Source: Bythopirellula sp.
Lineage (GTDB): Bacteria > Planctomycetota > Planctomycetia > Pirellulales > Lacipirellulaceae
Assembly: GCA_965216565.1 (NCBI GenBank)
Contig: OZ244170.1
Coordinates: forward strand, 2,368,001 to 2,432,000
Direction: 5' to 3'
DNA: 64,000 bases
A program made the position numbers and the translations under genes. Below the pieces are notes generated by a model, which was not told the origin of the DNA, made no database searches, and saw only the letters and a list, made by a program, of their open reading frames with translations. Positions 1 to 30,647 of the stretch are shown here, one piece after another (position 1 is the first letter of the stretch; each line of letters starts with the position of its first letter).

Positions 1-531
1 TGGCGAAAGCTGTTCGATAAAGATGTCCTCACCCGAAAGTGAGCAGACAACCGGCGGACCACAACGTTCGGCAATCATACGAGCCAGTCCGAGCATCATC
101 GAATTCGAGAGGTGCACCACGTCCGGCTTGACTTCGTCAATCAGCCAATCGACGAGGGCTTCCAATTCCTTTAATTGATTGCCACTTTCGCCACGTAGCA
201 TTGAGACAGTCAAATCGCCTAACTGACTAGGATCGACACTGTCGGCCCGCCCCGATAATTGCCGCAGAATGGCAGGATGATCGAGCCAGCGATCTATCCA
301 CCTCGGCAGGTGACGAAACAATTTCCACTTCTGCTGCAGGTAGACGTTGATTCCCCCAAAGAAGACGCGTTGTTCACTGACATCGGATTCGTCGGTTCGG
401 ATTGGGGTATAGATGGGGACTAATACGACGTCCTCGCCCATCTTCAGCATTTGAGCTGCCAAGGTGTTGTCGTGCAGACAACTGCCGCAATACATTCCCG
501 CGGCACCAGCAGCTAGATAGGCGATTCGCAT
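1..531 (-). CDS. Glycosyltransferase family 4 protein (N-terminal part; runs off the window edge)
   Basis: Not in the ORF track. Translated by hand from ATG at 531: MRIAYLAAGAAGMYCGSCLHDNTLAAQMLKMGEDVVLVPIYTPIRTDE..., a GT4-like N-terminus carrying a CGSC motif. Confidence 0.7.
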   Translation of the reverse strand, partial: MRIAYLAAGAAGMYCGSCLHDNTLAAQMLKMGEDVVLVPIYTPIRTDESDVSEQRVFFGGINVYLQQKWKLFRHLPRWIDRWLDHPAILRQLSGRADSVDPSQLGDLTVSMLRGESGNQLKELEALVDWLIDEVKPDVVHLSNSMMLGLARMIAERCGPPVVCSLSGEDIFIEQLSP

Positions 532-2139: not shown

Positions 2140-2345
2140 TTGCCGCTCCTTTTCGCATCGTCGATCTTAGGCCAATAGAACTTGATCGCCCAAAACCAAA
2201 GTGCACTTGCAGCAATCGAAATACAGGTGTGGTAAAAGAGCCCCACTGGCAGGAAGCCGAAGACCAACCGATCGTCCGTCCAAAACCAATTGTCTTGGTG
2301 CAAGACAATTAGAACTAAGACCATTGCCCACAATTTCACTGGCAT
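2136..2345 (-). CDS. DUF3311-like small membrane protein (SSS partner)
   Basis: MPVKLWAMVLVLIVLHQDNWFWTDDRLVFGFLPVGLFYH...; two TM segments; its stop overlaps the SSS start (TTGA); start trimmed from the ORF track. Confidence 0.7.
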   Translation of the reverse strand: MPVKLWAMVLVLIVLHQDNWFWTDDRLVFGFLPVGLFYHTCISIAASALWFWAIKFYWPKIDDAKRSGN

Positions 2346-2481
2346 CGAAGGTAGATCGCTTGGTTCGGAGGGCCGGGTGGGTCCTAGGACTGAGCCGAAC
2401 GAGAAGTTCGATCGTCCACTACGCTGGTCACAAGCTAGCAGATCAAGCACAAGAATTGAAGACCGGGCCACTCGTGGCCCA

Positions 2482-3720
2482 TTAGTCCGGCAAGCTGCCG
2501 CCGCGATTGCGGATCCAAGGATAAAGATCCTCAAATATTTCTCCGGTGCGGCCACTAAAGACTCGTCCAATCAGCAAATCGACCAACTCTTCCTGATGGT
2601 GCGGAAACTCTTGCAAGAACCGGCCGACGCGAAACTCTCCCGAGTAGAAGGCATGAACAAGCTTTCGAATCAATCCAGTCTGCTTAGAAAACTCGGGCAC
2701 CCATGACCCGAGCGCGTTGGCAGTTGTGTCGTTGTTCTTAATCGCACCAATAATACAATCTGCGGCGAGTTCCCCCGACTTTAACGCGAAGTAAACGCCC
2801 GAAGAATAGACAGGATCAATAAATCCCCAGGCATCTCCCACCAATACCCAACCGTCGCCGGCAGAACGACTGGTCGTATAAGAAAACTCTTTGGCCACCT
2901 TCATTTCGTTAACAGGCTCTGCTTCGTGAAGCCAACAACAAAGTGTGGGACACAATTGCTGCTCTTCTTCAAATACTTGCTGGGGTGTGCCGCGTCCTTT
3001 CAGTAAGTAGTCTCGGTCTCCCACCACGCCGACACTCACCATATTGTTGGACTGAGGAATGTACCAGAACCAGGATTTCTTTTCTGCGGTATGCATAATA
3101 ACTGTCTTCACACCGCCGCCAGCCTCGTCGCGATAGGCTCCGCGATAGTGGCACCAGATGGCTGCTTTTTTCAGATGAGGATTGACGGTACGCAATCCCT
3201 TCTTTGTAGCGACGACCGACTGCTGGCCGCTGGCGTCGACGATCACCTGCGCATAGATTTCTTGAATTTCGCCTGAAGGTACTTGAACCTTCACACCAAC
3301 CGCTCGCTCATCTTTGAAGATCACATCGACCACGCGCGTTCGATCCTGGCAGGTCGCTCCGAGGGACGCCGCATTCTCGAATAACATCTGGTCAAACTCA
3401 GCACGATCTACATGCCAAGTTTGTGTAGATTCGTGCGGATCGTGATTGCGGAAAAAAAACGGTGCCGATTCTTTACCCGCGTCGCTGACAAACTGAACGC
3501 CAACTTTTTGAGACCAAGCACTCTGCTTGAGCCGCTCGAGAACCCCAAGCCGTTGGAAAACCCAATACGTCTCCGGCATCAAGGACTCACCCACATGTTG
3601 GCGGGGCATAGACTCACGTTCGAGCTGAAGAACTTGAAAACCACCTTGGGCAACGAGGGCGGCTGTCGTTGAACCCGCGGGGCCGCCGCCAATGACAATG
3701 CAGTCGTATTGAGAATTCAT
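2482..3720 (-). CDS. FAD-dependent oxidoreductase, flavin-dependent halogenase-like
   Basis: GGGPAG FAD motif, WFWYIP (WxWxIP), FIDPVYSSG (FxxPxxSxG), and a Lys in QKVG at about the catalytic-Lys position. Confidence 0.75.
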   Translation of the reverse strand: MNSQYDCIVIGGGPAGSTTAALVAQGGFQVLQLERESMPRQHVGESLMPETYWVFQRLGVLERLKQSAWSQKVGVQFVSDAGKESAPFFFRNHDPHESTQTWHVDRAEFDQMLFENAASLGATCQDRTRVVDVIFKDERAVGVKVQVPSGEIQEIYAQVIVDASGQQSVVATKKGLRTVNPHLKKAAIWCHYRGAYRDEAGGGVKTVIMHTAEKKSWFWYIPQSNNMVSVGVVGDRDYLLKGRGTPQQVFEEEQQLCPTLCCWLHEAEPVNEMKVAKEFSYTTSRSAGDGWVLVGDAWGFIDPVYSSGVYFALKSGELAADCIIGAIKNNDTTANALGSWVPEFSKQTGLIRKLVHAFYSGEFRVGRFLQEFPHHQEELVDLLIGRVFSGRTGEIFEDLYPWIRNRGGSLPD

Positions 3721-3742: not shown

Positions 3743-4267
3743 TCATGAGAGGGCGATTTCCAGTAACTCCACCAGAACTTCGCCCTCCATCAATATCCTA
3801 GCAGTGCGACCAAAAACGGGAACCTCCGGATTGCACAAGAGATGGGTCTGCAACTCCTCCCCCGGTTGGACACGCCAGAGCTGGCACAATTCAACTTCTC
3901 GCAACAAATGATGACGAATCATGATTCGCCCTAAGGGCAATGCGCGCGATTCAATCTCCATACGAACAATTTCTGGCAGGCTAGCCAGATTAATCCGCAT
4001 GATCCCAAATTGCACAGGAGTTCCGTCGCGTTGGCGAGTTAAAACGATCCGCCGCGCGTATTTGTCCTTTTCTTGGACGGCTTCCAAGACATGAACGTCA
4101 ACCAAGCTATTGTGCCAGGCCTCGACGGTCACCGTCATATGATCAGTATGAGCTAGGAGTGAGGCGTACTGCTGTGATAGCTCGTCAGCCTCGACAGGCG
4201 TGAACTCTCCCACCTTATCGCGGGAAGAATAAAACTGCTTGATTAATGAGTCGAGTTGATCGTCCAC
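3743..4267 (-). CDS. Chorismate-pyruvate-lyase (UbiC/UTRA-fold)-like protein
   Basis: 174 aa; HMTVTVE, YARRIVL, ALPLGRIM and FGRTARI segments match the UbiC-like pattern. Confidence 0.55.
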   Translation of the reverse strand: MDDQLDSLIKQFYSSRDKVGEFTPVEADELSQQYASLLAHTDHMTVTVEAWHNSLVDVHVLEAVQEKDKYARRIVLTRQRDGTPVQFGIMRINLASLPEIVRMEIESRALPLGRIMIRHHLLREVELCQLWRVQPGEELQTHLLCNPEVPVFGRTARILMEGEVLVELLEIALS

Positions 4268-4338: not shown

Positions 4339-6225
4339 CTAAGTGGGAAGCGTTGGTTGAATGATGTTCAGTTGCGCTTCGGCAGGCCGTTCTAGTACCG
4401 TATCGACCAAATAGTAGAGTAAGCGACGAAGATTGTCTGGCGAAGTATCATCGGCAATTCGTTCGGCGCGTTCCTGGTACTTGTCGACTAAGGCATTGGC
4501 TTTTTCGAATACATCGGCTTGGCGGTAAAGGTGCTCGACTCGCGACAAGCGTTTCGTTGAATCTTCGGTTGAGTTGGCTAGCTCGATTAATTCCTGCTGA
4601 TCTGCGTTGGACAATTCTTCCAAGGCTAGGGCCCACAGTAGGGTGGGGCGACCCGCCAGTGCATCGAGCCCCGCAGCCAGCTTATTGTCTTGATCTCCCT
4701 GCCAATCTTTTAAGTCGTTGAGAATCTGAAATGCGATGCCCATGTACTTGGAAAACTGCTTCATCGGCTCGGCCAATTCACCCAACGGACCGGCACAGCG
4801 AAGTCCTCCCAGCAAAGCAGCTTCAAATGCTGGGGCCGTCTTAAGGGCATAGATTTTCAAGGCATCCAGAGGCGCGAGACGTTTGTCGTGCGAGTCTCTC
4901 CACAACAGTTCCGCGCCCTGACCCTCCGACAACCGCAAATGGGCATCCGCCAATTGGTCTAGTACGTCGCAAACCACTTCCGTCCCCAAGCTGCCCGATT
5001 CTCGACTGACAAGACGATATCCCAAACCGATCATGTAATCGCCGACATTGATGGCCGTGGACACTCCATGTTGACGATGGAGTGTTGGATTTCCATAGCG
5101 GAACTCATCGCCATCCTCGATGTCATCGTGCACCAGCGAAGCTTTGTGAAATGTTTCGATCGACAGAGCCACGCGGCGGACAGCGTCTGGTAGTTCGGCC
5201 AAATGCTCGGCCCCGGTGGGCAGCGTCCCTTCGCCGCCGGTCATCGCATCGTAAGCGGCCAGGGTGATGAAAGGCCGGGCATATTTGCCGCCTTGGCCAA
5301 GAAAATCTTGAGAGATCGTCTCCGTAGCGGCGATGGGATCGAGTCCAGCGGCGCCCTGACCATTGACTTCAACCAGGCTAGGTCCGCCCCGCTGTCGGGG
5401 AGCCAATCGCTGAAGGGTCGCGGGTTCAAACAGTCCTTTCGCTTCTCTCAACAAATGTAAATACGTGCTGCTCCGTTTCGGTGCCTGATCTTGTCGCACA
5501 TGAATCATCTCGTGTACCCAGTCTTCATCCACAGACGTATTTCGACAATCGCTGGAGAGAAGCGGCACCGCCATGCAAGGAATGCCAGCCAGGAGTACCT
5601 TGTCGATGGCTTTCTCAAGCACATTCAAGCAAGCCACGCCGACGATGGCATCGACATAGCCGCTGACAATGATTTTCATCACGATGGGAGAGCCTTCGGC
5701 CACAAGCACCTTGTAGCCCATCTCTTCGCCGATTGTTCGATAGTCGGCAATGCTGCATGCCCCACACTGCTTGCAGTCGAGGCCAAACTGATCGTAATCG
5801 GCCGGACAACCCTCGGCATGCTTCAGACAATGGGGTAGCAGGAGCAAACGACGCGAAGGCGGGACCGCAGCAACTTGATCTCGCCAAAACTCCGAGGCGA
5901 GCACCACCATCGTCCAACCGAGCAGTCCCTCGGGGAGTTCGAGTTCGTCGAGAATCTTTCGAGAAACCCACTCCAGGTCGTCCTTGGTGGGTGAAAGATC
6001 GGCGTCCATCTGCCGCGACACTTGTTGGCAGTGCTCGCGGAGGCGAACTCGTAGCTCCAGAGATTCCGGAACATCCTTAAGATGACTCGTGCGGCGACGA
6101 TTGCCACGGGCAGTCGAGTTAGCAGCCCGCCCCGTGGCAGACTGACTGGGGAGGGTCAGCTTATCAGACAACAACGACACCAACTCCTCCTTTCCGTTCG
6201 AACGTCGTCTCGTGCCCTGTTTCAA
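4339..6225 (-). CDS. DUF116 domain fused to a polyprenyl diphosphate synthase
   Basis: Cys-rich DUF116-like part (LLPHCLK, CKQCGACSI, GVAC); trans-IPPS part with GGKYARP, LVHDDIED, GQGAEL, KTA and ILNDLKD. Confidence 0.85.
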   Translation of the reverse strand: MKQGTRRRSNGKEELVSLLSDKLTLPSQSATGRAANSTARGNRRRTSHLKDVPESLELRVRLREHCQQVSRQMDADLSPTKDDLEWVSRKILDELELPEGLLGWTMVVLASEFWRDQVAAVPPSRRLLLLPHCLKHAEGCPADYDQFGLDCKQCGACSIADYRTIGEEMGYKVLVAEGSPIVMKIIVSGYVDAIVGVACLNVLEKAIDKVLLAGIPCMAVPLLSSDCRNTSVDEDWVHEMIHVRQDQAPKRSSTYLHLLREAKGLFEPATLQRLAPRQRGGPSLVEVNGQGAAGLDPIAATETISQDFLGQGGKYARPFITLAAYDAMTGGEGTLPTGAEHLAELPDAVRRVALSIETFHKASLVHDDIEDGDEFRYGNPTLHRQHGVSTAINVGDYMIGLGYRLVSRESGSLGTEVVCDVLDQLADAHLRLSEGQGAELLWRDSHDKRLAPLDALKIYALKTAPAFEAALLGGLRCAGPLGELAEPMKQFSKYMGIAFQILNDLKDWQGDQDNKLAAGLDALAGRPTLLWALALEELSNADQQELIELANSTEDSTKRLSRVEHLYRQADVFEKANALVDKYQERAERIADDTSPDNLRRLLYYLVDTVLERPAEAQLNIIQPTLPT

Positions 6226-6302: not shown

Positions 6303-8255
6303 TCAAACTGCACTCGAAACCCTTGTCTTCTCTGCTTCCTGCGTTAGTTCTCGCCTGGCTCGGGCTAAGGCGCTCGAGGCAAAAATAAGCGGATACAGAC
6401 GCTCATAATACCACAACTTGGCGAAGTAGAAACCTATGGGGGCAGGCTCTTTGTGACGGTTCTGCTCGACGGCGTCGATCAACCAGGAGACTCCATGCTC
6501 GACGGCAGTTCGGAATTCCGGCTGGCGATCCACGAAAGGCAACAATGCCTCGATGGCCAGGGCGGTTTCTTCCACGCTGGGTGCAATTCCAGATTCGTTC
6601 ATTTGCTTGAGCAAAATTGGCTTCTTAGGCAAAGCGGTGCCCCAGGCGCCACTCGCATGCTGAACACTCGCCAGCCACTTGGCCGCACGCACCGCCATCT
6701 CTGTGTCGCACCATCCCAGGTCTCGGCACATCTGCAGCACTTTGGAAGTCCCATAGACAGGATTCTGTTCGGCCATGTGATGTTGATTGCCAAACCACAA
6801 GGGCAGGAAGCTACCGTCTGTTTGTTGCTGGCGTCCAAGATATTGAGATCCCAACGAGACAGCGCTGGAAACTCGCCGTGCGAATGGCTTGTTGGATTGT
6901 GAAAGATTGAGCAGAAGCTTCCAAGTGTTGAGCGCTCGCATGGCGTGGGCGGTGATATCGGTGCTGCTGCGGTCAAATGGCAATCGCCCCCAGCCCCGGC
7001 AGAAGGTCGGCCAACCGCCATCCTTATTCTGTATTTCCAAGAGCCACTTCACGCCAGCTCGGGCAGCAGTTTTGATTTCCGAGTCGCGAATCTCAGGCCA
7101 CCGACGGTTCCAAGCTGCCAAGGCTAGTAAGGCAGCCGCCGTATCGTCTGCATCGGGGATCCCACCGGACAGATCGGTCCAAGCCCAGCCACCTGGCAGC
7201 GCTCCCGTCGCTCTATGAATCTCCTGATGTTGACACGAAAGCAACCAATCAAGCGATTGGTGCGCCTCGGCCGAGGGTCCTCCCGTTTGGTAAGCATCGT
7301 CCTCCAGCTTCCAGTTGAGCGCTGTCAGCGTCTGGGAACTGTTCCAGGTAGCAAGATTGGAATCAATAGGCCAACTTCCATCTTCCCGGACCGAAGAGAG
7401 CAAGAATCGCACCCCGCGCCGTACCACCGGATGTTCGACCAGTCCCATACTCGAAAGACTCATCACTACAAAGCTTGTCAGCGGCGTGGCTTCCAGGAAA
7501 CCTCCCGAAGCGGGTTGCATTTCGTTCAGGATTTCCAAGCTGCGATTCTTGGCCGCAGTGCGTAACCAGCGCACTAATGGGTTGCGAGGCGCTGCGTGGT
7601 GAAAGCGAGCTTGCCCAATTGCTACCAGAGCCGGCAGGGCATAGCTGACGACTGGTAAATTCAAATGATGATAGAGTCGCTGCGGCAGGCAGGCCAGTTC
7701 AAAAGGCAACGCGGGAACCTTGCGCCACGGCACCATATCTGCAAGTGCACAGTTGGTAAGAATCGGTACCGCGAAGGTCTTGTCGCCGGCGTATCGCTGC
7801 TTGAGCGCCGGCAGACCTCCCTGAGCCGCGACATATTGTGCGGCTCGCGCCATCAGATCGTTGTACTTGGCTGGCACACCCGTTAGCTGAAATGCCGCCT
7901 GAACCAACATCGTGGTTGCGATATTCGACAGGCTTTGATCAGTATCGCCCCAGCCGCCATCCTCATTTTGTTGCCCAGCCAGCCAGTGCAACGAATGAAC
8001 GATTAGCTCGCTCAAATCTCCCTGATAAATTTCGTGGAGACTATCCTCAGAGCTTCCAGGAGAATAGGCAGGCAACCCGCAGCTTGTGCCATTCTGTTCC
8101 GCTAACACCAGTGCGCTGATGGCTGTAGCCGTAGAGAGCGGTGAACTCGACAGACGACCAGCCCAAAATCCGCGCGCATTTCGCTCCTCGAGCAGGTCAT
8201 TGCGAACAGATAGATGGGCGGCAGCTAACCGCTCAGTATCAACAGGGGAAGTCAT
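6303..8255 (-). CDS. Squalene-hopene cyclase-like class II terpene cyclase (prenyltransferase/squalene oxidase repeats)
   Basis: DADDTA (DxDD) motif; QW repeats QNEDGGWG, QPASGGF, REDGSW, QNKDGGW, QTDGSF, QHASGAW; ATG at 8255 chosen as start. Confidence 0.85.
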   Translation of the reverse strand: MTSPVDTERLAAAHLSVRNDLLEERNARGFWAGRLSSSPLSTATAISALVLAEQNGTSCGLPAYSPGSSEDSLHEIYQGDLSELIVHSLHWLAGQQNEDGGWGDTDQSLSNIATTMLVQAAFQLTGVPAKYNDLMARAAQYVAAQGGLPALKQRYAGDKTFAVPILTNCALADMVPWRKVPALPFELACLPQRLYHHLNLPVVSYALPALVAIGQARFHHAAPRNPLVRWLRTAAKNRSLEILNEMQPASGGFLEATPLTSFVVMSLSSMGLVEHPVVRRGVRFLLSSVREDGSWPIDSNLATWNSSQTLTALNWKLEDDAYQTGGPSAEAHQSLDWLLSCQHQEIHRATGALPGGWAWTDLSGGIPDADDTAAALLALAAWNRRWPEIRDSEIKTAARAGVKWLLEIQNKDGGWPTFCRGWGRLPFDRSSTDITAHAMRALNTWKLLLNLSQSNKPFARRVSSAVSLGSQYLGRQQQTDGSFLPLWFGNQHHMAEQNPVYGTSKVLQMCRDLGWCDTEMAVRAAKWLASVQHASGAWGTALPKKPILLKQMNESGIAPSVEETALAIEALLPFVDRQPEFRTAVEHGVSWLIDAVEQNRHKEPAPIGFYFAKLWYYERLYPLIFASSALARARRELTQEAEKTRVSSAV

Positions 8256-8453
8256 CGAGCCGACTGGCTCCGGGGTTGGTGGGGCAGCCGAACCAACCGG
8301 TCCGACGCAAATCAAATTTTAAGTGCAGTAGCCCAACGTGTCGAGTGCCGCGACCGCCAGCAATCGGGGGGGAAACCTTTCTGCCGCTAGTTTGATAGGC
8401 CCAAAACAGGCATAATATTTTGTATCAAAATCGTCCAAACCCAATAGGGCCGC

Positions 8454-9686
8454 ATGTATCTCCGCTACGCCAAAAGATTGCTGACCGAAACAGATAAACG
8501 GCTCCTTTGGAAGTTGACCTGGAATTTCGCGTACAAGGGCGCACGAGCCATCGGTAAGCATAAGCGCCGCCTCGCACGGGGGGAATTCTTCCCACCCTTC
8601 TTGTACATTTCGATCATCAATAGCTGCAATCTTCGCTGCCAGGGTTGCTGGGTGGATGTCGCTGCCAAACAGGAGAAGATTGAAGTCGATGCGCTGTCGC
8701 GCGTCATTACCGAAGCAAACGCGGCGGGGAACTACTTCTTCGGCATCGTCGGTGGCGAACCGTTTATGCATGCCGACATCCTCGAAATCTTTCGCCGGCA
8801 TCCAGACTGCTATTTCCAAGTCTTCACCAACGGGCATTTCATCACGCCCGAGGTCGCTGCGGAGCTGCGCAAATGTGGTAATGTCACGCCGCTGATTAGT
8901 GTCGAAGGCACAGAAATTGTGAGCGATGAGCGACGCGGCGGTGCCGATGTGCTCAACAAAACTATGCAGGGCATCCACAACTGTATCGAACACCGCGTCA
9001 TTACCGGCGTTTGCACGAGCGTTTGTAAAACGAATCTCGACGATCTGGTGAACGAGGCGTGGGTCGATCGCTTGATCGAGCTGGGCGTGCTGTACATGTG
9101 GTACCACACCTATCGACCCATGGGACCAGAGGCCGCGCCGGAACTGGCGTTGTCGCCGGAGGAGCAAGTTCGGATCCGACGCTTTGTGGTCGAGATGCGT
9201 TGCCGCAAACCGATCGGTATTATCGATGCCTACTACGACGCGGGCGGTCAGGCATTGTGCCCCGCCGCTACCGGTTTCACGCACCACATCAGCCCCTGGG
9301 GCGACATCGAGCCGTGCCCCATCGTGCAATTTGCCAAGGATTCGATTTACGACGAGCGCCCCTTGGCCGACACGTTTAACAATTCGGAGTTTTTGAAAGA
9401 CTTCCGCGAACTCGCCGCCTCGCAAACCCGTGGCTGCATCGTGCTCGAGCGCCCCGACCTGCTACACGAGCTAACAGTCCTTCACGGTGCCCGCGATACC
9501 ACAGCCCGTCAGAGCGCCGTTGGGGAACTGCAATCGATGCATCCCCGCCCCTCACAATACAACGTGCAGGAGCAAGTCCCCGAAAAAAGCTGGGCATACC
9601 GCTTCGCCAAACGGCACTTCTTCAACGACTTCGGAGCTTATGATGCGCCCCAGAATCCAATCGATCGTCTTACCCAGAACGCTTAA
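8454..9686 (+). CDS. Radical SAM/SPASM(twitch) domain protein
   Basis: CNLRCQGC, GGEPF, FTNG; C-terminal CPAA...GDIEPCP...GC. Confidence 0.9.
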   Translation: MYLRYAKRLLTETDKRLLWKLTWNFAYKGARAIGKHKRRLARGEFFPPFLYISIINSCNLRCQGCWVDVAAKQEKIEVDALSRVITEANAAGNYFFGIVGGEPFMHADILEIFRRHPDCYFQVFTNGHFITPEVAAELRKCGNVTPLISVEGTEIVSDERRGGADVLNKTMQGIHNCIEHRVITGVCTSVCKTNLDDLVNEAWVDRLIELGVLYMWYHTYRPMGPEAAPELALSPEEQVRIRRFVVEMRCRKPIGIIDAYYDAGGQALCPAATGFTHHISPWGDIEPCPIVQFAKDSIYDERPLADTFNNSEFLKDFRELAASQTRGCIVLERPDLLHELTVLHGARDTTARQSAVGELQSMHPRPSQYNVQEQVPEKSWAYRFAKRHFFNDFGAYDAPQNPIDRLTQNA

Positions 9687-17184: not shown

Positions 17185-17250
17185 TCAAACTCTGTCACTC
17201 GTCAGTGTGAGGTGCCACCGCGCAGCGGGGGTATACCGTTCCTGCCTGCC

Positions 17251-18402: not shown

Positions 18403-18599
18403 GGATGTTGCCTCCTCAGGGCTCGCAAAAGTAGCCGATGTCTACAGGAATAGACGGCTCAAGCAAGTATCCCTTACAACATTATTGATTTTAGACCGAG
18501 ATTAGCAGACGGGCACCCCGCATTCCGCCGAACCTGGGAAGCAAGGCTTCTGAACCTGATCGGTTGCGATCCCGCAAGTCTCGATTTTAGCGTCGGATT

Positions 18600-19400: not shown

Positions 19401-19540
19401 GTTGAGTTCTCTTTTTATTGAGCGATCAATCGGGAGGGTATCAGGCGAGGCTGGAATTCTAGTCGATTCAACAAATCCAGGCAAACGCCCAATACGCACC
19501 AACCTGACCTGGGGTTCAGAAAGCACCCTAAACCCATACT

Positions 19541-20131: not shown

Positions 20132-20286
20132 ACTTGCTAGTTTCTCCTCACGAGCAATTAAGTTCGTATTACGTTTGAAGTTTGATTTTAAGTCAATTCT
20201 ATAATATCAAATGGGCATAAATCGTAACCGCATCGGGACGAATCGCCAATGCGGATGGCTTTGCTAGCAGAAATGCCCAGAGCATA

Positions 20287-20982: not shown

Positions 20983-21207
20983 TCTACCTCTCCGCAAGGT
21001 TGTTGCTTCTCTTTTGTTCTCATACCCCTCCAGGCCAATCTGAACTTGGCAATTCGCAATCGCGCATTGGAGAACGGGACCGACTAATGCCGATATTCCG
21101 ATTGACACAATATCCTACCGCCGAGGGATCGGCCCTGCTAGTTTGCCCCACCGCTAGACCCGCCCATTCAGGCCCTACAGGCCGTAAACCTTCACAGGAT
21201 TCCAAGG

Positions 21208-22132: not shown

Positions 22133-23206
22133 TCAGAGATCAAACTCTTCCAGGGCGTCGATCAAGTCGTCCAGTTCATCCTTGGCTGAGGCAGTGGGTG
22201 GTTCAGACTCATGGCGTCTGGGAACACCAATACCCACACCAAGCGGTTCGCGCCCGACTTTCATCAACTGCTCGTCCCGTTCGCGGGCTGCCACCTCCAG
22301 GGCCTTCTCGGCACCGGGCTCCCCCGGATCAGGAGCTCCAAATAACAGAGACAGATCGATCTTCATGTTGCCGCCAACTTCGTTGCTGCCGGCAATGGTG
22401 GGACTCTTATGTTGTGGGAAGATGATCGCATTCTCGGGACACACGCGGCTACACGCAGGGCACCCTTGCCGACAATTGTCGGGCTGCTCAACAAGAATCG
22501 TCTCTTGCCCATCGATGCCATAAACGCCAAATAAACAGAAGTCGATACACTCTAAGCAGTTGGTGCACCGACTAAAATCAATCACCGGATACCAGCGTCG
22601 TGCCACATTGCCCTCTACCGGCTCCGACGATGCAGGCTGCTTGCCACCATTCACACCAGAGTCGTCCGCATTCAGGTAGCGCTCCATCTGCTCGGGTTTT
22701 GGATCGCCTTGGATCCAGCTCCCTAGTTCTACCGTCGGCGTGCTGAGTTCCTGGGAAATTCGCTCAACCTCATCCAAGTACTGCGTGGCAGTTTCGTGAG
22801 CGCGGAGGTCGAGGCAATAGATGCGCCGCGCTGGCAACTCGAGTTGGTCGATCACGCGTGGCTTGGACTCTAAATCGTCTGCTTCCTCGGCGGCCTCTTC
22901 TTCGTCGCCATCTTCACCAAGCGATTTCAAAAGCGAGACGCCTTCGCGACCGCGCACTCCGTTGCGGTCCAAAATCCATCGCGCCGCCCGGGGGTAGAGC
23001 CAGCTACACACCACCACGTCGCCAGCCAGTCCCGTCAGGCAAAGCATCCCGGTGCCATCCGCCTTCAAATCGTAGAGGTGGGGCACCACGGTAACATCGA
23101 TGCCGGGCCTGCCAAGCAGCTCGCCGACGATAGACTCTTCGAGCATCCGTTTCTTCGGATTTTGGCTGCGGCTCTGAGAAACAACAACGGTAAGGCGATG
23201 GGGCAT
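22133..23206 (-). CDS. 2x[4Fe-4S] dicluster ferredoxin-domain protein
   Basis: CTNCLECIDFC and CRQGCPACSRVCP, plus an N-terminal domain containing VPHLYDL. Confidence 0.85.
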   Translation of the reverse strand: MPHRLTVVVSQSRSQNPKKRMLEESIVGELLGRPGIDVTVVPHLYDLKADGTGMLCLTGLAGDVVVCSWLYPRAARWILDRNGVRGREGVSLLKSLGEDGDEEEAAEEADDLESKPRVIDQLELPARRIYCLDLRAHETATQYLDEVERISQELSTPTVELGSWIQGDPKPEQMERYLNADDSGVNGGKQPASSEPVEGNVARRWYPVIDFSRCTNCLECIDFCLFGVYGIDGQETILVEQPDNCRQGCPACSRVCPENAIIFPQHKSPTIAGSNEVGGNMKIDLSLLFGAPDPGEPGAEKALEVAARERDEQLMKVGREPLGVGIGVPRRHESEPPTASAKDELDDLIDALEEFDL

Positions 23207-23361
23207 GTTCAAAGGTCAGCAAACGTAGCCGGGCAATTCTTGAAGACCCCCTGATTGTAGCCGATCGCAGGCAAGGGACAATGTGTGGCCGTTTTCGCAC
23301 AGACTTTACGGCAACAGAAAGTTTTTCCGACGTTAGTTTGTCAGGGGGTCGTCGAACCCAC

Positions 23362-23820
23362 TCACTTGTTCAATTGCCCTTTGATCGTCTGCTGAGTTAC
23401 TTCCCACACGGCTGCCAGATGCACCAGATATTCTTTGGGACTTAAAAGTTCGTGGCTCGCGACCCGTAGCTCAAACAGCCAGCCATTGCCGTACTTGTCG
23501 ACGTTGATGGCCGAAGGATCTTGCAACAAACTGTCGTTGATGGCCACCAGCTCACCGCCACAGGGTGCGTAGAGCGAGGCTTCTGCCTTCTGGCTTTCGA
23601 TCTGCCCGATCTCTTGCTTTTCAACCAGCATCGTGCCGGGCGGATGATCCCAATCGAGGAAGTACACATCTTGCAGCAAACGGACCGCGTAGGCGGCAAA
23701 GCCAAACTGGAATCGATCCTGGCCAGCCTCCTTGGCCCACATATGATTTCGCGCGTAAAGTCGATCCGACGGAAACTCCGCCTGATACTCGCCCATCATA
23801 AAGTGCAACTCGTCTACCAT
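23362..23820 (-). CDS. Glycine cleavage H-like (lipoyl-carrier) protein
   Basis: YARNHMW, IESQKAEASLYAP (lipoyl Lys retained), INVDKYGNGWLF; no gcvP or gcvT in the window. Confidence 0.85.
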   Translation of the reverse strand: MVDELHFMMGEYQAEFPSDRLYARNHMWAKEAGQDRFQFGFAAYAVRLLQDVYFLDWDHPPGTMLVEKQEIGQIESQKAEASLYAPCGGELVAINDSLLQDPSAINVDKYGNGWLFELRVASHELLSPKEYLVHLAAVWEVTQQTIKGQLNK

Positions 23821-23848
23821 TTCTATCAAACGCTAACTTTCACTTTGT

Positions 23849-23980
23849 TAGCCACAGAGTGCACAGAGGAGTTCTTGTACCTAGGCAACAATAGCAGTTT
23901 TATTGGTCGCCGATTCAAATGGTTTATTGCTTAATATGCTGAGCGATTGATCTCTGTGCTCTCTGTGTTCTCTGTGGCTA
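23849..23980. repeat. Inverted pair of CACAGAG-unit repeats
   Basis: TAGCCACAGAGTGCACAGAG (23849-23868) versus CTCTGTGCTCTCTGTGTTCTCTGTGGCTA (23952-23980); a degenerate copy lies near 541-570. Confidence 0.75.
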
Positions 23981-23996
23981 GTTCCTTAAACTGTCC

Positions 23997-25301
23997 CTAC
24001 GTGTAGCGGACATCCTGGTGTTGCGGTTCAAAGAATGCGGGCAGTAAGGCATCGGCCCGCAACAGGCCCTCGCGAGTTAGCCGAATGTGATCCCCGTCGA
24101 TCTCTGCCCAACCTTGGTCGGCATAGTCCTGCCAAACGTCGGCCCACTTCTCTAACACATTCTGCCCAAACTTCTGCTGGAAGTAATTCGTATCCAGATA
24201 ACCCCGCTTCAAAAGCAGAATCATTTCCCGAATCAACTGTTGCTCCGGAGTCGTCTCCAGCGCTCGACTCAACGGCAGCTGCTCTTCTTCCAGCGAATGA
24301 CAGTAAGCCTCCCACTCCGGAAGGTTTTGGTAGTGGACCCCAGAAACATGGCCAAAACTGGCAATCCCTGTCGCCAGCAGATCGCTCCCTTGCCACAGAT
24401 TATCGCGGTAGCTGAAGATCACGCGCGTCGGATCTTTCACAAGTGTATACGCGCTAGAAATGGAGTATCCCGCATCGACAAAGCGATCGAATGCGTAATC
24501 GACCCACCGCCGCTTAGTCGGCCAGTCGGCCACGGGCGTTTCTATCTTGTTGCCTAAAATGTCCTGCGAGTAAACCGTGTTGAATGGCAGCTCCATTTGA
24601 TAAATCGTGACGCTGTCGGGCTCCATGGCCAGCGCCTGCTCGACGGCGTCCTGCCATTTGTCGTCGGTATCACCCACCATGCCCGCAATCAGATCGATGT
24701 TGACGTTGTAAAACCCAGCCGCTTGGATCCAGGGCCAAGCACGCTCGATCTCTGCCGACTCGTGGGCTCGACCATTGTTTCTAAGAATCTCGTCGTCGAA
24801 GTGCTCTACCCCCAGGCTCAGCCGCGTGACGCCCAATTCGCGGAGCGTATGGACTTTGGCCTCGCTCAACGTGCCCGGTTCGCACTCGAACGTCACTTCT
24901 TCTGCCTGATCCCAATTGATGTTGGCCTGCAGTCGTTCGACCAATCGCTTCAATTGCCGGGAACTTAAAAACGACGGCGTGCCCCCACCGAAGTACACAA
25001 ACCGAAAGGGCCGATCCCCCATCACCGGCAGCGCACTCACCAGTTCGATCTCTTTGGAAAGGGCTGCCAGATAGCGCTCTACCTCTTGCGAGTTCTTATC
25101 GGTGAACACTTTGAAGTAGCAGAACTTGCAGCGTTTGCGACAGAAGGGAATATGCAAGTACAAACCCAGAGGAACCTTTGCCGGCTGCGAAGCAAAGGCC
25201 TGTCGCACCGCTGGGAGATTCTCCTCCGACCATTGCGAGAAGGGCGGATAGTTACTGATAAAGTAACTTCCAACTTCCGTCTTTTTCGAATCTGTGGCCA
25301 T
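23997..25301 (-). CDS. HemN-like (class C) radical SAM protein
   Basis: YLHIPFCRKRCKFCYF, GGGTPS, RLSLGV, NIDLIAG. Confidence 0.9.
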   Translation of the reverse strand: MATDSKKTEVGSYFISNYPPFSQWSEENLPAVRQAFASQPAKVPLGLYLHIPFCRKRCKFCYFKVFTDKNSQEVERYLAALSKEIELVSALPVMGDRPFRFVYFGGGTPSFLSSRQLKRLVERLQANINWDQAEEVTFECEPGTLSEAKVHTLRELGVTRLSLGVEHFDDEILRNNGRAHESAEIERAWPWIQAAGFYNVNIDLIAGMVGDTDDKWQDAVEQALAMEPDSVTIYQMELPFNTVYSQDILGNKIETPVADWPTKRRWVDYAFDRFVDAGYSISSAYTLVKDPTRVIFSYRDNLWQGSDLLATGIASFGHVSGVHYQNLPEWEAYCHSLEEEQLPLSRALETTPEQQLIREMILLLKRGYLDTNYFQQKFGQNVLEKWADVWQDYADQGWAEIDGDHIRLTREGLLRADALLPAFFEPQHQDVRYT

Positions 25302-25328: not shown

Positions 25329-26474
25329 TCAATCTCTCTCGCTGCTCTCTTCGCGCGGCCCAAAGCAATACAACGTTCCATCGCTATTGGCGATCACAAG
25401 TTTTCCGTCGCTCACCGCTGGAGAAGCGAGAAAGTTCCCTCCAGCCTCATACTCCCAGTTTTGCTTGCCTGTTGCCAGTTCCAGCGAAATCAATCGGCCT
25501 CGCTTCGTGCCGAACAGTACGGAATTCCCCACGATGATCGGAGCACTCTCCACGGGCATCCGGACCGACGTGTCCCATTCTAGCTTGCCTGAGTCGGGAT
25601 TGAGAGCGTAGATTTTCTTTCCTTTGGAGGTGTAAACCACCGTTGCGTCGCTCGTGGCAGCGGAGTACGACTCCTGTTGCGAGTCGTCTTCGTAGGTCCA
25701 GGTGACCTCTAAATCGTCGATGCGATAGAATGTTCCTCCGAAGGTCCCAAAAAACATGCCTTCCTGCCATCGCGCGGGAGTCGAACCGGTTTGTCCTGCC
25801 AATTCGAAACTTTGAGTCTCCTGCCCCGTCTGCAAATCGACCGAGTGCAGTCGGCTATCGCAACCGGCGAGAAACACATTGCCGGCAACGATCGTGGGCC
25901 AGCAACGTAGCGGAGCCTCGATTTCGAACTTCCACTGCAGTTTGCCGGTGTCGGCAGCGAGGCAAATCAATTCGCCTGCCTCAGTGGTCACCAACACTCG
26001 GCCTTCATGCACATTGGGCCCGGCATACATCTCGCCGCGGGCCTCGTACTGCCAAAGCAACTTTCCTGAATCCGCCGCCAATGAGCGGAGCATGCCATTG
26101 AAATCGCCGACGAACACCTTGCCATCCACCACCGCGGCTGCCGAAATAAAGCCACTGTCTGCGAACTCTTTCTTCCACAGCAACTTTCCATCCGCGATTT
26201 TGACAGCGTAGAAAGTGCCATCCACGTCTCCTAGGTAGGCAATCCCCTTGGCAATGACGGGGGTCACCTCGAATCCACTTTCTTCGATCTCAAAACGCCA
26301 CAATTCTTTTGGCTCTTGCGAGAATTGGCCAGCGGCAGTGCCAGTCGCGGCTCGATCGCCCCGTTCGAACGGCCAATCGCCTGCTGCCGAGTAAGCTCCC
26401 AGCACAAATAGCGCGATTCCAAATAGGCTGAACAGCCGGAGCGCATCGAAAGCTGCCCAGTCACTGCGCTGCAT
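25329..26474 (-). CDS. PQQ-like (BamB-type) beta-propeller repeat protein, probably exported
   Basis: Repeated xDGKLLW/TGKLQW blades; hydrophobic leader before WPFERGD; start uncertain (ORF is open to 26591). Confidence 0.85.
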   Translation of the reverse strand: MQRSDWAAFDALRLFSLFGIALFVLGAYSAAGDWPFERGDRAATGTAAGQFSQEPKELWRFEIEESGFEVTPVIAKGIAYLGDVDGTFYAVKIADGKLLWKKEFADSGFISAAAVVDGKVFVGDFNGMLRSLAADSGKLLWQYEARGEMYAGPNVHEGRVLVTTEAGELICLAADTGKLQWKFEIEAPLRCWPTIVAGNVFLAGCDSRLHSVDLQTGQETQSFELAGQTGSTPARWQEGMFFGTFGGTFYRIDDLEVTWTYEDDSQQESYSAATSDATVVYTSKGKKIYALNPDSGKLEWDTSVRMPVESAPIIVGNSVLFGTKRGRLISLELATGKQNWEYEAGGNFLASPAVSDGKLVIANSDGTLYCFGPREESSERD

Positions 26475-26574
26475 GAGAAATGGACCGTCCGCGCTAGCCA
26501 CGGGTGCCTCGCCCAGGCTTACACTATCGGCAACTGACGCTCGTGCGTTCGGATTCTCGATTTGAGTATCTACT

Positions 26575-27723
26575 CTAGTAAGCTTTTTCATATAGACCGA
26601 GCAAGTCGTCGACGTCGACGGCGATTGGATTGAACGTGGCGGTCCACTGCTTGGCAGCTTCTTCCGCGAGTGTCGCTAAGCTCTCTTTCGGCACTTCCTT
26701 CTCTTGCAGTGTACCGGGCAGCCCCGCCTGCGTGGCGATCGAGGCAAGAAAATCGGCAAGCTCTTCACTGCCACCGGAGGGACAATCCGCAAACTCGGCT
26801 GTCACCGCAAGCAGTTCTTCGTACCATGCTTCGCACTCTTTTGCGTTGAATCGCACCACCTGCGGCAACATCAGCGCAATGGCCTCTCCATGGGCAATGC
26901 CGAAGTTGGCCGTTAAGGGATTCGCAAGGGCATGGGCAGCACCTAGCATGGAGTTTTCGATCGCCACGCCCGCGCAACAGGCTCCCAACTGCATATGCGA
27001 TCGCGCTTCGATATCGTCCGGCGTTTGCAACACCTTGAGATAGTTGGGTGCAAGTTCCAGCCACGCCTCCTGACTAAAATGGCAAGAAATTTCCGTTCGC
27101 TTGGTGGTCACAAATGTTTCGACCGCATGGGAAATGGCATCGAAGCCCGAGAGGGCGGCCACACGCGGAGGCTGCGTAAGCGTCAACTCTGGATCGAGTA
27201 CCGCAATGCGAAAGGCGGCGCGTTTATCGCCACAGGCCATTTTCACGTGCGTCTCAGCGTCGGAGATCAGCGCGAACGATTGAGTCTCGCTGCCCGTGCC
27301 CGCGGTGGTGGGTACCGCAATCATGGGGAGCAACGGGCCCGTGGCCTTTCCTACACCCCAATAGTCCTGCATCCGCCCGCCACAGGAATAGAGAAAGTTA
27401 ATCCCCTTGGCACAATCCATCGAGCTTCCACCGCCAAGCCCAATAATCAGTTCCGGCTGAAACCCTTTTGCCTGTTTGAGTCCCGACTCAACGTGGTCGG
27501 TTGTAGGATTTTCCTCGACGCCACCAAAGAGCGCCGTTTCGAGACCTGCCTTCTGCAACGAGGTCAGACCCCGTTCGGTATGACCAGCCGAGATCACCCC
27601 CTGATCGCTGACAACCAGCACCCGCCGCGCTTCCAAATCCTGTGCAAAACTGCCCAGCTCATCAAGGCGGCCGACACCAAATTCGATCCTGGTCGGCGAA
27701 GCGTACTGGTCGATTTGGGCCAT
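26575..27723 (-). CDS. Iron-containing alcohol dehydrogenase
   Basis: GGGSSMD, PTTAGTGSE, DAISHAVE, HALANP...HG. Confidence 0.93.
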   Translation of the reverse strand: MAQIDQYASPTRIEFGVGRLDELGSFAQDLEARRVLVVSDQGVISAGHTERGLTSLQKAGLETALFGGVEENPTTDHVESGLKQAKGFQPELIIGLGGGSSMDCAKGINFLYSCGGRMQDYWGVGKATGPLLPMIAVPTTAGTGSETQSFALISDAETHVKMACGDKRAAFRIAVLDPELTLTQPPRVAALSGFDAISHAVETFVTTKRTEISCHFSQEAWLELAPNYLKVLQTPDDIEARSHMQLGACCAGVAIENSMLGAAHALANPLTANFGIAHGEAIALMLPQVVRFNAKECEAWYEELLAVTAEFADCPSGGSEELADFLASIATQAGLPGTLQEKEVPKESLATLAEEAAKQWTATFNPIAVDVDDLLGLYEKAY

Positions 27724-27845: not shown

Positions 27846-29270
27846 CTACTCACTATGCACCTGCAAGGCACGATTGCGATACAACAACTCGGTGAGATTG
27901 CCTTCGTGGGGTTGTAGCCAATTGAGTTGCGGAGTGGGAATCGGCCCTAGGTTGAGCCGGTCGATATGGGTGGTAGCAATCAATTGTCGGCGAAACGCTT
28001 CGTCGTCTGTAATCGCCGATGCGACTAGGGTGGGTCCAATTGAATCGAGCATCTTCGATTGCTCGCATTGCACAACGCTTACTAGCGGAAACATGTACTC
28101 TTTGTTGGCGGCCGCGCACTCGGGAGATTCGCAGTGCAACACAGTGGGACGTAAATAAGCGCAAGTTTCTCGCCTGTCTAATCGCGAACCATACTCAGCC
28201 GTGGCATGAGTTGTGCCGCTATCTTCGGCGTCGCGCTCGACCATCTTCCAAATCGCCTCAGCAACATCTGCATTGGTAAACGCCGCGAGCCCCGCTTCGG
28301 GATCCTCAGGCGGCAACGCGGTAACAGGTCCCAATCGCTCGGCAAGCGCCGCGGCAATCTCCTGTGTGTGACGCGATGCATAAATGCTGGAGCAGTTAAT
28401 ACAACTCCGCCCACCATTGCGGTAGACGCTATCGACCATCAAATCGAGATGCTGTTCCCACTCGTCGACTTTGTCGTCGCCCAACAAGATCTTGCTGAAA
28501 CCTGGACCATGCACCTGCACGCCAGGATTCCCGGCGTATTGTTGAATCGTCTGCTCCCCTCCAAAAATCATGCTCCGCCGATAACTCGCCAACAGGGCAC
28601 CTCCGACGTCCGCCCCACTACCTGGGTAAATGGAAATTGCAGCAGCGGGAATGCCGGCCTCAGTCATCGCGGCCGCCACGCGGAAGGGTGTCCAAGGTTC
28701 TTGCGAACCGGGCTTGAGCGCCAACCCAATTTGCAAAGCCACCACTGGCAGCCATAACGTATGCACGCCGGGAGAGTTTGACGGCAACACGGCACCCAGC
28801 ACGTCGGTCTGGGCCTGATAGCTCACCGTCACGTTGCGACCCTCTTCGCCATAGCCGCGGGCAAGAATGTTCAGATCAAGACCGCGCGTCAGGGCATCGA
28901 GAATTTTATCGATGTTCTTCAGCACAAACGCGTTCTTTGCCACGTTGGCCTCGCACATGGAATGCGGCATGCCTGTGGTGGCCGACTGCTGTTTGACAAA
29001 GTCGGCGGGCGACTGCGTGGAATCACCAATCTTGAGATTCCCCGACTCGAATAACTCGCCTGCTTGCTTACAACAGGCAATCAGCTCCGCAGGATTCATC
29101 TGTTGCAACGATTCACGTGCCTTGGCGGCATGTCGAGAATCACGCCGTACGATTCCCGCACCTGTGAGTCCGACGCGAGCAACAACCTCTCCCGTGAGGA
29201 AATCTATAATCTCCTCAGATTCCAAAGATTCGTAGGGCTCACCCCAACGAAGCGGAGAAAGATTCACCAT
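27846..29270 (-). CDS. Aldehyde dehydrogenase-fold protein, EhpG/acyl-reductase-like
   Basis: LPSNSP, LKPG, catalytic Cys in NGGRSC, EYMFP; HGPGFSK where hydrolytic ALDHs have ELGGK. Confidence 0.8.
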   Translation of the reverse strand: MVNLSPLRWGEPYESLESEEIIDFLTGEVVARVGLTGAGIVRRDSRHAAKARESLQQMNPAELIACCKQAGELFESGNLKIGDSTQSPADFVKQQSATTGMPHSMCEANVAKNAFVLKNIDKILDALTRGLDLNILARGYGEEGRNVTVSYQAQTDVLGAVLPSNSPGVHTLWLPVVALQIGLALKPGSQEPWTPFRVAAAMTEAGIPAAAISIYPGSGADVGGALLASYRRSMIFGGEQTIQQYAGNPGVQVHGPGFSKILLGDDKVDEWEQHLDLMVDSVYRNGGRSCINCSSIYASRHTQEIAAALAERLGPVTALPPEDPEAGLAAFTNADVAEAIWKMVERDAEDSGTTHATAEYGSRLDRRETCAYLRPTVLHCESPECAAANKEYMFPLVSVVQCEQSKMLDSIGPTLVASAITDDEAFRRQLIATTHIDRLNLGPIPTPQLNWLQPHEGNLTELLYRNRALQVHSE

Positions 29271-29334: not shown

Positions 29335-30465
29335 TTAATAAACCCCAACCGTTGTGGATTGTTCCAATTTGTGGAATGGCCGCACGCCGCTCACACCGTC
29401 CCACGGATACCAGTTACTCGGAGGTTCTCGCTCTCCCTCGTCCCGTTCCAGGAATCCCGGCACGAAGAATTCCTTGGTAAGTGTGGTGAGTTTGATGCGC
29501 CCTGTCTCACCGTACTCTACGAGTCGATTGGAGTCTTCGAAGTCGACGACCTCGACCACTGCGCGAGGTTGTGGCGAGTGGTAAGTTATCTTGTAACCGT
29601 TCTCTTTACTAATGGGTTCACTGCAAGCGAGCCCCATGAGCGTATTTCCGTAGGTAGGCGTCATATAGATGCCACTTTCCTGCGGCGGCCCGCCGAAGAG
29701 TTCTTCCACGCAGAACTTTGTCCACTGCGGCGTAAACTCCGTGCCGCCAGAGAATATGCCGCAGATGCCCATTTCTGCCAGGCTCGTCCCACGATCTTCC
29801 AATGCCAAGCACAGTGCCTCGATCAACTTCGGCGTGCCAAACATGCATCGAACATCGTGGCCAGCTTCGAGAATTGTAATCGCCTGATCGATGCAGTGAT
29901 TCTTATATTCCTCGAGATGCTCCATCCACCCTTTCTTTATGAGCTTCACGACCCAGCGGGGATCGAGATCGATACAAAACGAAATACCACCGCGATGTTG
30001 GGCTAAATGCTCGACTGCCAACCGCAGCCTGCGCGGACCACTTGGCCCCAACATCAACCAGTTTGCCCCAGGCGGAAAATAGCGGTCCGGCAAGGTATCG
30101 CTGAACAGCGAATAATCGGTGCGAAAATCATCAATTGAAATTCGACTCTTCGGCGTGCCCGTCGTTCCTCCAGTTTCGAACACATAGACGGGCTTGTCCG
30201 CCATGGCCTGTGGCACCCAACGCCGCACTGGTCCGCCCCGCAACCACTCGTCTTGAAATGGCTCGAACTTCTGCAAGTCTTCGAAGCAAGAAATTTCCGA
30301 CAGTGGATCGAACTTGAGCGAACGTTTCTTTTCCAGCCAAAATGGGCAGCCTGTCGCATCGTCGAAGTGCCACCGCACTGTCTTTACAGTATGAGCATCC
30401 AACAGTGCTTTGGCAGAGTCGACGCGTGTGAGCGCATCTGACTGATCGTTCGACAAAGGAGACAT
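29335..30465 (-). CDS. EhpF-like adenylate-forming (phenylacetate-CoA-ligase-like) enzyme
   Basis: RWHFDDATGCPFWL, ETGGTTGTPK P-loop, IDLDPRWV, GGTE, YG, ERD and C-terminal GVY, resembling phenazine-modifying EhpF as I recall it. Confidence 0.75.
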   Translation of the reverse strand: MSPLSNDQSDALTRVDSAKALLDAHTVKTVRWHFDDATGCPFWLEKKRSLKFDPLSEISCFEDLQKFEPFQDEWLRGGPVRRWVPQAMADKPVYVFETGGTTGTPKSRISIDDFRTDYSLFSDTLPDRYFPPGANWLMLGPSGPRRLRLAVEHLAQHRGGISFCIDLDPRWVVKLIKKGWMEHLEEYKNHCIDQAITILEAGHDVRCMFGTPKLIEALCLALEDRGTSLAEMGICGIFSGGTEFTPQWTKFCVEELFGGPPQESGIYMTPTYGNTLMGLACSEPISKENGYKITYHSPQPRAVVEVVDFEDSNRLVEYGETGRIKLTTLTKEFFVPGFLERDEGEREPPSNWYPWDGVSGVRPFHKLEQSTTVGVY

Positions 30466-30647
30466 GGGTTTGCCTTTCGCTACGCAGCTATTGCGACGAA
30501 TCCGACAGGGAATACGACCTGGCAACCATGCCAAGTATCTATGGTTGAGCAATATCTTGAGCAACCATCAAAAAATAACGTATCGCCATTGGAACAGCAA
30601 GCTACCGAACGCGCATCCAACTCACTTATCTGCTCAAACTCGGGCAT

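Follow-up and report, generated by a model that had tools for sequence, protein, structure and literature searches.

The stretch of DNA analyzed here, referred to as the window, comprises 64,000 nucleotides of the Bythopirellula sp. genome (contig OZ244170.1, positions 2,368,001 to 2,432,000; coordinates prefixed C1 refer to the genome's contig). On its minus strand, a gene encoding a 152-amino-acid (aa) protein related to the H protein of the glycine cleavage system was identified (GcvH-like protein, 23362..23820; Pfam GCV_H, E 1.9e-20). As stated in a previous sequence-only reading of the region, this gene is located between the gene for a HemN-like radical S-adenosylmethionine (SAM) enzyme (23997..25301) and the gene for a ferredoxin-domain protein (22133..23206), both likewise on the minus strand, and its product retains the modifiable lysine within the motif ESQKA (Lys78, codon 23587-23589). 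The ferredoxin-domain protein (357 aa from ATG) combines a flavodoxin-like N-terminal domain with a 2x[4Fe-4S] domain featuring CxxCxxCxxxC at residue 214 and CxxxCxxCxxxC at residue 245, and the HemN-like protein features Radical_SAM and HemN_C domains together with the motif CRKRCKFC. The EhpF-like ligase recognized in the same reading was also confirmed; this adenylating enzyme is encoded at 29335..30564 (minus strand), its only two PDB sequence matches are both EhpF (E 1.4e-41), and its true start is probably located about 35 codons inside the open reading frame (ORF).

The GcvH-like protein misses both gcvH equivalog cut-offs (72.6 vs 115.85 bits for TIGR00527; 87.6 vs 117 bits for NF002270), whereas the true gcvH of the same genome clears them with 137.9 and 151.2 bits, respectively. 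Its AlphaFold2 (AF2) model (predicted local distance difference test score, pLDDT, 94) exhibits the H-protein fold (Foldseek E 3e-12 to 1ONL), complemented by an N-terminal hairpin and a long, well-predicted C-terminal helix (residues 128-146), both of which are family-specific. In an alignment of 34 family members, representing two subfamilies (type 1 and type 2) with a mutual identity of only 21-29%, Lys78, Glu75, Ala79, His26, Trp28 and Arg47 are invariant in all 34 sequences; Arg47, Tyr131 and Leu135 are family-specific invariant residues remote from the lysine motif in sequence. According to the available text of PMC7733448, Glu12 and Glu14 of Escherichia coli GcvH hold the aminomethyl arm. 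Glu was found at the equivalent positions in 0/34 GcvH-like sequences, position 14 being non-acidic and mostly hydrophobic. Furthermore, canonical lipoate ligases are described in the available part of a preprint (10.64898/2026.10.01.755906) as recognizing an acidic GcvH surface composed of D43, E46, E61, D68 and D86. Mapped onto the family, these positions are acidic in 28, 17, 34, 24 and 25 of the 34 sequences, respectively; the median isoelectric point is 4.7, and no Cys residue is invariant (0-3 per sequence). Taken from the sequence data, it is supported that the GcvH-like protein does not represent a working glycine-cleavage H protein, and its acidic ligase-contact surface appears largely retained, resembling GcvH rather than LbpA, the lipoyl protein of sHdr sulfur oxidation.

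The genome, which consists of one contig and is 94% complete, contains just two GCV_H genes. A separate canonical gcvTHP locus, for which the sequence-only reading had recommended a search, was found at C1:3082516-3088734, where gcvT-gcvH-gcvPA precede an ORF of gcvPB size and a gene of the lipoate ligase family. Moreover, LipA scores over its cut-off and a second lipoate-ligase-like gene is present. The designation of the GcvH-like protein as an orphan therefore holds for its neighborhood, where the genome search revealed neither a second H gene nor a lipoate-ligase-family gene, but not for the genome, which contains the genes named above.

For distribution analyses, 301 Planctomycetota genomes (at least 85% complete) were searched with the EhpF-like protein, the ferredoxin, a 34-sequence GcvH-like profile and a cyclase encoded in the window (6303-8255). 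Two gene sets were distinguished. Module A comprises genes for pyrroloquinoline quinone (PQQ) propellers, a symporter, the EhpF-like enzyme, an aldehyde-dehydrogenase-fold protein (ALDH), an iron-containing alcohol dehydrogenase (Fe-ADH), the HemN-like enzyme, chorismate-lyase-like and halogenase-like proteins, a GT4 glycosyltransferase, a thioesterase, EamA-like and PaaK-like proteins and ATP-binding cassette (ABC) proteins. Module B consists of the ferredoxin (plus a small four-Cys protein or domain), a radical SAM enzyme, a DUF116-polyprenyl synthase, a prenyltransferase-type barrel and a squalene-hopene-cyclase-like (SHC-like) cyclase. Much of both modules lies within positions 1-9686 of the window, and the remainder is scattered in the genome. 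Strong EhpF matches (E at most 1e-85) were obtained for 59 genomes, ferredoxin and cyclase matches for 76 genomes each and GcvH-like matches for 51; a further 15 weak EhpF matches (E 1e-33 to 1e-47) were excluded from module A, and none of the 12 fetched loci among them has an ALDH partner. Ferredoxin and cyclase occur together in 75 of 77 genomes. The GcvH-like gene was present in 47/47 genomes with both modules, 0/12 with module A only, 4/30 with module B only and 0/212 with neither, and hence always accompanies module B (51/51). In a subset of 62 genomes (20 of the 47 A+B genomes, all 12 A-only and all 30 B-only genomes), HemN mirrors EhpF exactly (32/32 with EhpF, 0/30 without), LipA was detected in 60 genomes, and a gene for a CobW-like protein was found in 20/20 A+B, 0/12 A-only and 7/30 B-only genomes. 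Related genomes are not independent; presence/absence nonetheless also differs between members of one genus or family (G108 vs G141, G011 vs G145, G177 vs G235 and G211 vs G182; G and L numbers denote genomes and fetched loci). The four B-only carriers of the GcvH-like gene are devoid of EhpF, ALDH and HemN orthologs; since they are draft genomes (86-95% complete), real loss of ALDH and HemN is not certain.

Gene order and sequence co-variation separate the GcvH-like protein from the genes next to which it is found in the window. Among close relatives (Planctomycetota), the HemN-like gene is located directly upstream of the GcvH-like gene in 11/12 cases, so that this arrangement is not due to chance. 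More distant loci, 30 in total and most of them retrieved by way of ferredoxin matches, show the GcvH-like gene together with the DUF116-synthase gene 27 times and immediately behind HemN twice, the usual order being H-like, CobW-like, small Cys protein, ferredoxin, radical SAM, DUF116-synthase, barrel and cyclase. Co-variation was expressed as distance-matrix rho, without a significance test, over 10-29 genomes per pair (19-29 for the main pairs). For the GcvH-like protein, high values were obtained with the CobW-like protein (0.90), the ferredoxin (0.85), the barrel protein (0.85) and the DUF116-synthase (0.84), followed by a cysteine desulfurase (0.62). Values with module A proteins were low (EhpF 0.23-0.26, HemN 0.26, halogenase-like 0.21, ALDH 0.14). 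The desulfurase gene was detected within the locus in 15/26 type-2 genomes, several of these loci being cut by contig ends, vs 0/8 module B loci without the GcvH-like protein. EhpF itself co-varies with the PaaK-like protein (0.86), ALDH (0.80) and HemN (0.61); the ALDH gene directly follows EhpF in 35/44 loci, and the ALDH Cys is kept in 24/24 homologs. Accordingly, the GcvH-like protein and the ferredoxin probably belong with module B and not with the EhpF-like and HemN-like genes, and the HemN/GcvH-like adjacency in the window is a lineage-specific junction of modules A and B.

Based on gene content, co-occurrence, sequence co-variation and residue conservation, the reading preferred here, in which confidence and doubt are evenly balanced, is that the GcvH-like protein would act as a lipoylated sulfur or redox shuttle serving module B together with the CobW-like GTPase and the cysteine desulfurase. 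It would represent a dedicated stand-alone lipoyl-domain protein of the uncharacterized terpenoid pathway encoded by module B. Lys78 would receive its octanoyl or lipoyl group in trans through LipA and the LipM/LplA-type ligase of the cell, and the resulting dithiol might shuttle sulfur or electrons, working with the CobW-like (G3E) GTPase and, usually, the cysteine desulfurase. In this way, the shuttle could build, repair or reduce the Fe-S centers of module B or pass sulfur to the module B product, and the ferredoxin would serve the radical SAM or DUF116 domain of module B. The EhpF-like, EhpG-like and Fe-ADH proteins would form a separate acid-to-aldehyde-to-alcohol cascade within module A, having no need for the GcvH-like protein. 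Since EhpF pairs and co-varies with ALDH, the corresponding pair is located in a phenazine cluster annotated without an H protein and the EhpF/EhpG system provides a precedent, the natural acceptor of EhpF is, by analogy, most likely the ALDH cysteine.

Several observations weigh against the shuttle function. Co-variation of the GcvH-like protein is only moderate with the cyclase (0.50) and the second radical SAM enzyme (0.41), and type-1 loci, including the window, have no linked desulfurase. Moreover, 26 of the 30 B-only genomes are devoid of the GcvH-like protein, so that not every module B requires it, and the shuttle reading leaves unaccounted for why the protein nearly always comes with module A (47/51), unless this reflects a lifestyle such as oxygen exposure. 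Regarding lipoylation, a lipoate-ligase-like gene and a cysteine desulfurase gene are located directly beside the GcvH-like gene in two genomes of one family (G065 and G106), but no ligase gene was found in the remaining fetched cluster loci, the distribution of the second ligase-like gene does not follow that of the GcvH-like protein, and the window's own protein carries Ser at the Asp68 position. Two candidates for private lipoylation enzymes were rejected. The second LplA-like gene does not track the GcvH-like protein and adjoins it only in the two genomes mentioned, which speaks against a general dedicated ligase. The second radical SAM enzyme as a private lipoate synthase fails in G300, G006, G007, G161, G244 and G277, where it is present without the GcvH-like protein, and in G008, where the GcvH-like protein is present and another radical SAM enzyme substitutes.

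Alternatively, the lipoylated protein could replace an acyl carrier protein (ACP) and couple both modules, presenting a chorismate-derived, halogenated or methylated aryl unit from module A as dihydrolipoamide thioester to the prenyl and cyclase enzymes of module B, with a meroterpenoid or glycolipid as product. This function is considered unlikely, but it stays alive because the GcvH-like gene follows an AND-like distribution (47/47, 0/12, 4/30 and 0/212, as listed above), the halogenase is of the carrier type, no ACP motif was found and the cavity is hydrophobic. More precisely, the closest solved relatives of the halogenase include PltA, ChlB4, 3E1T, 5BVA and 5BUK, which we take to be carrier-dependent; no ACP-type DSL motif was detected among 253 small ORFs of nine module A loci; and the cavity position corresponding to Glu14 is non-acidic and mostly hydrophobic in 34/34 sequences. 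However, the A-only genomes G011, G124 and G156 (94-100% complete) retain the halogenase-like, PaaK-like and HemN proteins without a GcvH-like protein, the four B-only carriers possess it without EhpF, ALDH and HemN orthologs, and its sequence does not co-vary with module A. Furthermore, the PaaK-like ligase and the thioesterase suggest a coenzyme A (CoA) tether.

A structural or regulatory subunit that binds the ferredoxin or the CobW-like GTPase via the extra hairpin and helix, with lysine modification as a switch and not as a shuttle, appears still less likely. The ferredoxin and CobW-like genes do show the tightest and most persistent linkage, the extra helix is well predicted, and Arg47, Tyr131 and Leu135 are invariant far from the lysine motif in sequence. 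Nevertheless, the fact that Lys78, Glu75 and the His-Trp cavity stay unchanged among proteins sharing only 21-29% identity argues for a working arm. It is very doubtful that the protein serves as a spare GcvH or as an octanoyl/lipoyl relay donor for other lipoyl domains: the H-protein fold and the acidic surface would fit, but its scores remain under the gcvH cut-offs that the true gcvH passes, Glu12/Glu14 are absent in 34/34 sequences, and module B is present in 51/51 carriers.

Least probable of all is the proposal of the sequence-only reading, in which Lys78 receives a non-lipoyl acyl or aryl group straight from the EhpF-like ligase and the ferredoxin reduces the HemN-like enzyme. In its favor, the genes of close relatives form a run on one strand together with those for EhpF, ALDH, Fe-ADH and HemN, the Lys is invariant and EhpF is also present in 47/51 carriers. 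Against it, EhpF pairs with the EhpG-like ALDH (35/44 loci; rho 0.80) and not with the GcvH-like protein, 12 genomes possess EhpF and HemN without GcvH-like protein or ferredoxin, the ferredoxin follows the cyclase (75/77) and occurs without EhpF in 29 genomes, and no amidotransferase for lysine-amide release was found in the cluster. A non-lipoyl modification is also disfavored by the acidic ligase-contact surface, which is largely kept, and by the ligase-like and desulfurase genes adjoining in two genomes. From the idea of GcvH as a biosynthetic carrier, the placement of a protein outside glycine cleavage within a biosynthetic cluster was retained, and the partners proposed for it were not supported.

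The protein and both modules were compared with known systems. With GcvH (1ONL, 3AB9, 1HTP), the protein shares the fold, the Lys at a beta-turn, E-x-x-K-A, the His-Trp cavity and the acidic surface; it differs by the N-terminal hairpin and C-terminal helix, missing Glu12/Glu14, missing linkage to P, T or L genes and sub-cut-off scores. GcvH-L, known from Streptococcus/Staphylococcus (5A35) and Chlamydia (TIGR03077) and encoded in a sirtuin/macrodomain gene context, likewise represents a GcvH paralog outside the glycine cleavage system; however, identity to 5A35 is 18%, only 28.6 of 144 bits were reached on TIGR03077, and no sirtuin or macrodomain genes were seen here. LbpA, according to the available text of PMC6067878, is also a stand-alone GcvH-like protein located beside Fe-S proteins, and a role in sulfur or electron shuttling has been proposed for it there. 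In LbpA, two Cys are conserved and the surface facing the ligase is basic, whereas the family described here is acidic and has no conserved Cys pair; the cluster is without recognized Hdr subunits or LipS1/S2-type genes, its partners are terpenoid enzymes, and no recurring Hdr or LipS family was found among the unassigned ORFs of the fetched loci. Two clusters from Chloroflexia metagenome-assembled genomes (L018, L019) with three GcvH-like genes, several lipoate-ligase-like genes, radical SAM genes and Hdr/ETF-like genes resemble the sHdr-LbpA group III.

Module A resembles the EhpF/EhpG system of D-alanylgriseoluteic acid (phenazine) formation in that an EhpF-like gene (E 1e-41 to 3HGU) is followed by that of an EhpG-like ALDH, and the EhpF/ALDH pair of a Burkholderia phenazine cluster, which is annotated without an H protein, is 32% and 30% identical to the window's pair. 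In contrast, no phenazine genes were recognized, and the pair is joined to Fe-ADH, HemN-like, chorismate-lyase-like, halogenase-like, GT4 and transport genes. With an adenylating enzyme beside a Cys-bearing ALDH-fold partner, module A shows, as judged from its sequences, the layout of a putative two-protein carboxylate reductase of the EhpF/EhpG type. For module B, the window's cyclase reaches 107 of 431 bits on TIGR01507, DxDD is present in 20/21 homologs, and the DUF116-synthase gene is adjacent; on scores and context, it would belong to the 'SHC-like' class II cyclase clade. This clade from the PVC and FCB groups, Spirochaetota and Acidobacteriota is of unknown function according to the available parts of PMC7306690 and PMC12324236, and Santana-Molina et al. 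(PMC7306690, available part) reported a polyprenyl-synthase neighbor and predicted a non-squalene substrate. A divergent cyclase, an intact catalytic motif and an adjoining polyprenyl synthase are shared with it; the available parts of these accounts name only the polyprenyl synthase as neighbor and not ferredoxin, GcvH-like, CobW-like, desulfurase or module A genes. In the available essential-gene list of a TraDIS (transposon insertion sequencing) study on P. limnophila (PMC10632474), the sole COG0509 gene is Plim_2594, numbered beside gcvP; the same supplement file, as far as available, contains none of COG0635, 1454, 1541, 0523, 1852, 0644, 0535, 1012 and 5029, and neither point was counted as evidence.

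The remaining module A genes of the window are encoded on the minus strand. Upstream of the HemN-like gene, those for a PQQ/BamB-type beta-propeller protein (25329..26591), the Fe-ADH (26575..27723) and the EhpG-like ALDH-fold reductase (27846..29270; Cys290 in GRSC) lead to the EhpF-like gene, which in three related loci (L007, L008, L024; 57-81% identity) is preceded by the gene for a 154-aa protein without Pfam or NCBIfam match (30872-31336 in the window). The HemN-like protein remains under every NCBIfam equivalog cut-off listed (hemN 178/325, hemW 170/205, HutW 199.7/400), and a separate HemN-family paralog is encoded at C1:4584058. Its architecture corresponds to that of class C radical SAM methyltransferases (HemN-like layout with CxxxCxxC), and the sequence suggests chemistry of this type. 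At the beginning of the window, the 5' part of the GT4 glycosyltransferase gene (1..531; the gene exceeds the window, C1:2367242-2368531) is followed by genes for a sodium:solute symporter with a small DUF3311 partner (580..2570), the flavin-dependent halogenase-like protein (2482..3720; best PDB match PltA; in its family WxWxIP in 16/16 and K in the catalytic-Lys column in 15/16) and the chorismate-lyase-like protein (3743..4267). The latter assignment is weak (Pfam Rv2949c-like, E 0.021, under cut-off); its family profile matches PDB 2NWI at E 2e-4. The thioesterase gene is located just before the window, and a PaaK-like gene was found at C1:3143403. Promoter and terminator counts in the window were no different from shuffled sequence.

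Regarding module B, the genes for the DUF116 (Cys-rich)::polyprenyl diphosphate synthase fusion (4339..6225) and the SHC-like class II cyclase (6303..8315; DADD motif intact) are located on the minus strand and that for the second radical SAM enzyme (8454..9686) on the plus strand, with a CobW-like gene at C1:2171600. The prenyltransferase-type barrel, a constant module B member, is encoded just before the window (C1:2363014-2363925; DLLST and DxEY motifs). Its assignment as a Zn-dependent S-prenyltransferase was rejected: the similarity to RabGGTase beta is weak (E 2e-5), and the Cys/His positions, presumably the Zn ligands in protein prenyltransferases, read Leu and Tyr. Two families of the module B radical SAM enzyme alternate: one was found in 30 genomes, the other in 20, and a single genome has both. 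In the 20 genomes, a 511-aa protein weakly similar to B12-binding TIGR04013 (L115:10048-11583) replaces the 410-aa enzyme in a near mutually exclusive manner. The ferredoxin profile reaches HdrA solely via its ferredoxin part, and the fold search with the N-terminal domain returned generic flavodoxin-like folds (Z up to 8.5). Four Cys of this domain are kept in most lineages, often in a separate small gene (L127:10726-11082, L142:6016-6789); most are lost in the type-1 lineage, including the window's ferredoxin. In the B-only loci L138, L140, L142 and L143, genes for NuoEF-like and 2Fe-2S/GltD-like oxidoreductases located just upstream of the ferredoxin gene may provide its electron source.

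In this genome, the cluster halves are split by about 12 kb of apparently unrelated genes (9700-22122), which by ORF reading encode MetH-like, MsrA/B-like fusion and PEP-CTERM-like nuclease-fold proteins; DUF2461 was assigned from the library. In G157 (L128, L037) and G232 (L157), module A is as in their family and module B is of type 2, pointing to a horizontal transfer that replaced module B and the GcvH-like gene. Distant EhpF-like genes (33-35% identity) without ALDH partner occur in L064-L071 and L075 (family f34 and G256; e.g., L066:752-14105); in the f34 loci L064, L066 and L068, they are part of a conserved run with genes for a male-sterility-type reductase, SCP2, an MMPL exporter, a U32-family protein and a class III aminotransferase, which is another undescribed lipid pathway.

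No publication on the full cluster or the GcvH-like family was found in the literature searched, subscription journals being mostly outside its coverage. The SHC-like clade and its polyprenyl-synthase neighbor are already known; the division of the genes into modules, the AND pattern and the co-variation analysis are new here. What the SHC-like cyclase converts and what it produces are named as an open question of terpenoid evolution and biomarker research in the available parts of PMC7306690 and PMC12324236. For this cyclase, which roughly one in four of the Planctomycetota genomes sampled carries (76/301), a gene list is now provided, consisting of two separable modules and an accessory unit (GcvH-like, CobW-like and desulfurase genes), and the naturally occurring A-only, B-only and A+B genomes make comparative lipidomics and targeted deletions feasible. 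Should the protein couple both modules as a carrier, which we regard as improbable, a lipoyl domain would serve natural-product assembly as a biosynthetic carrier, and many Planctomycetota would make a so far undescribed meroterpenoid membrane lipid, halogenated or glycosylated, as the product of the orphan SHC-like clade. The GcvH-like protein is real and would represent a variant of stand-alone lipoyl proteins inside an uncharacterized pathway; if its role as a sulfur or redox shuttle is true, it would represent a further use of the H-protein fold outside glycine cleavage, beside LbpA and GcvH-L.

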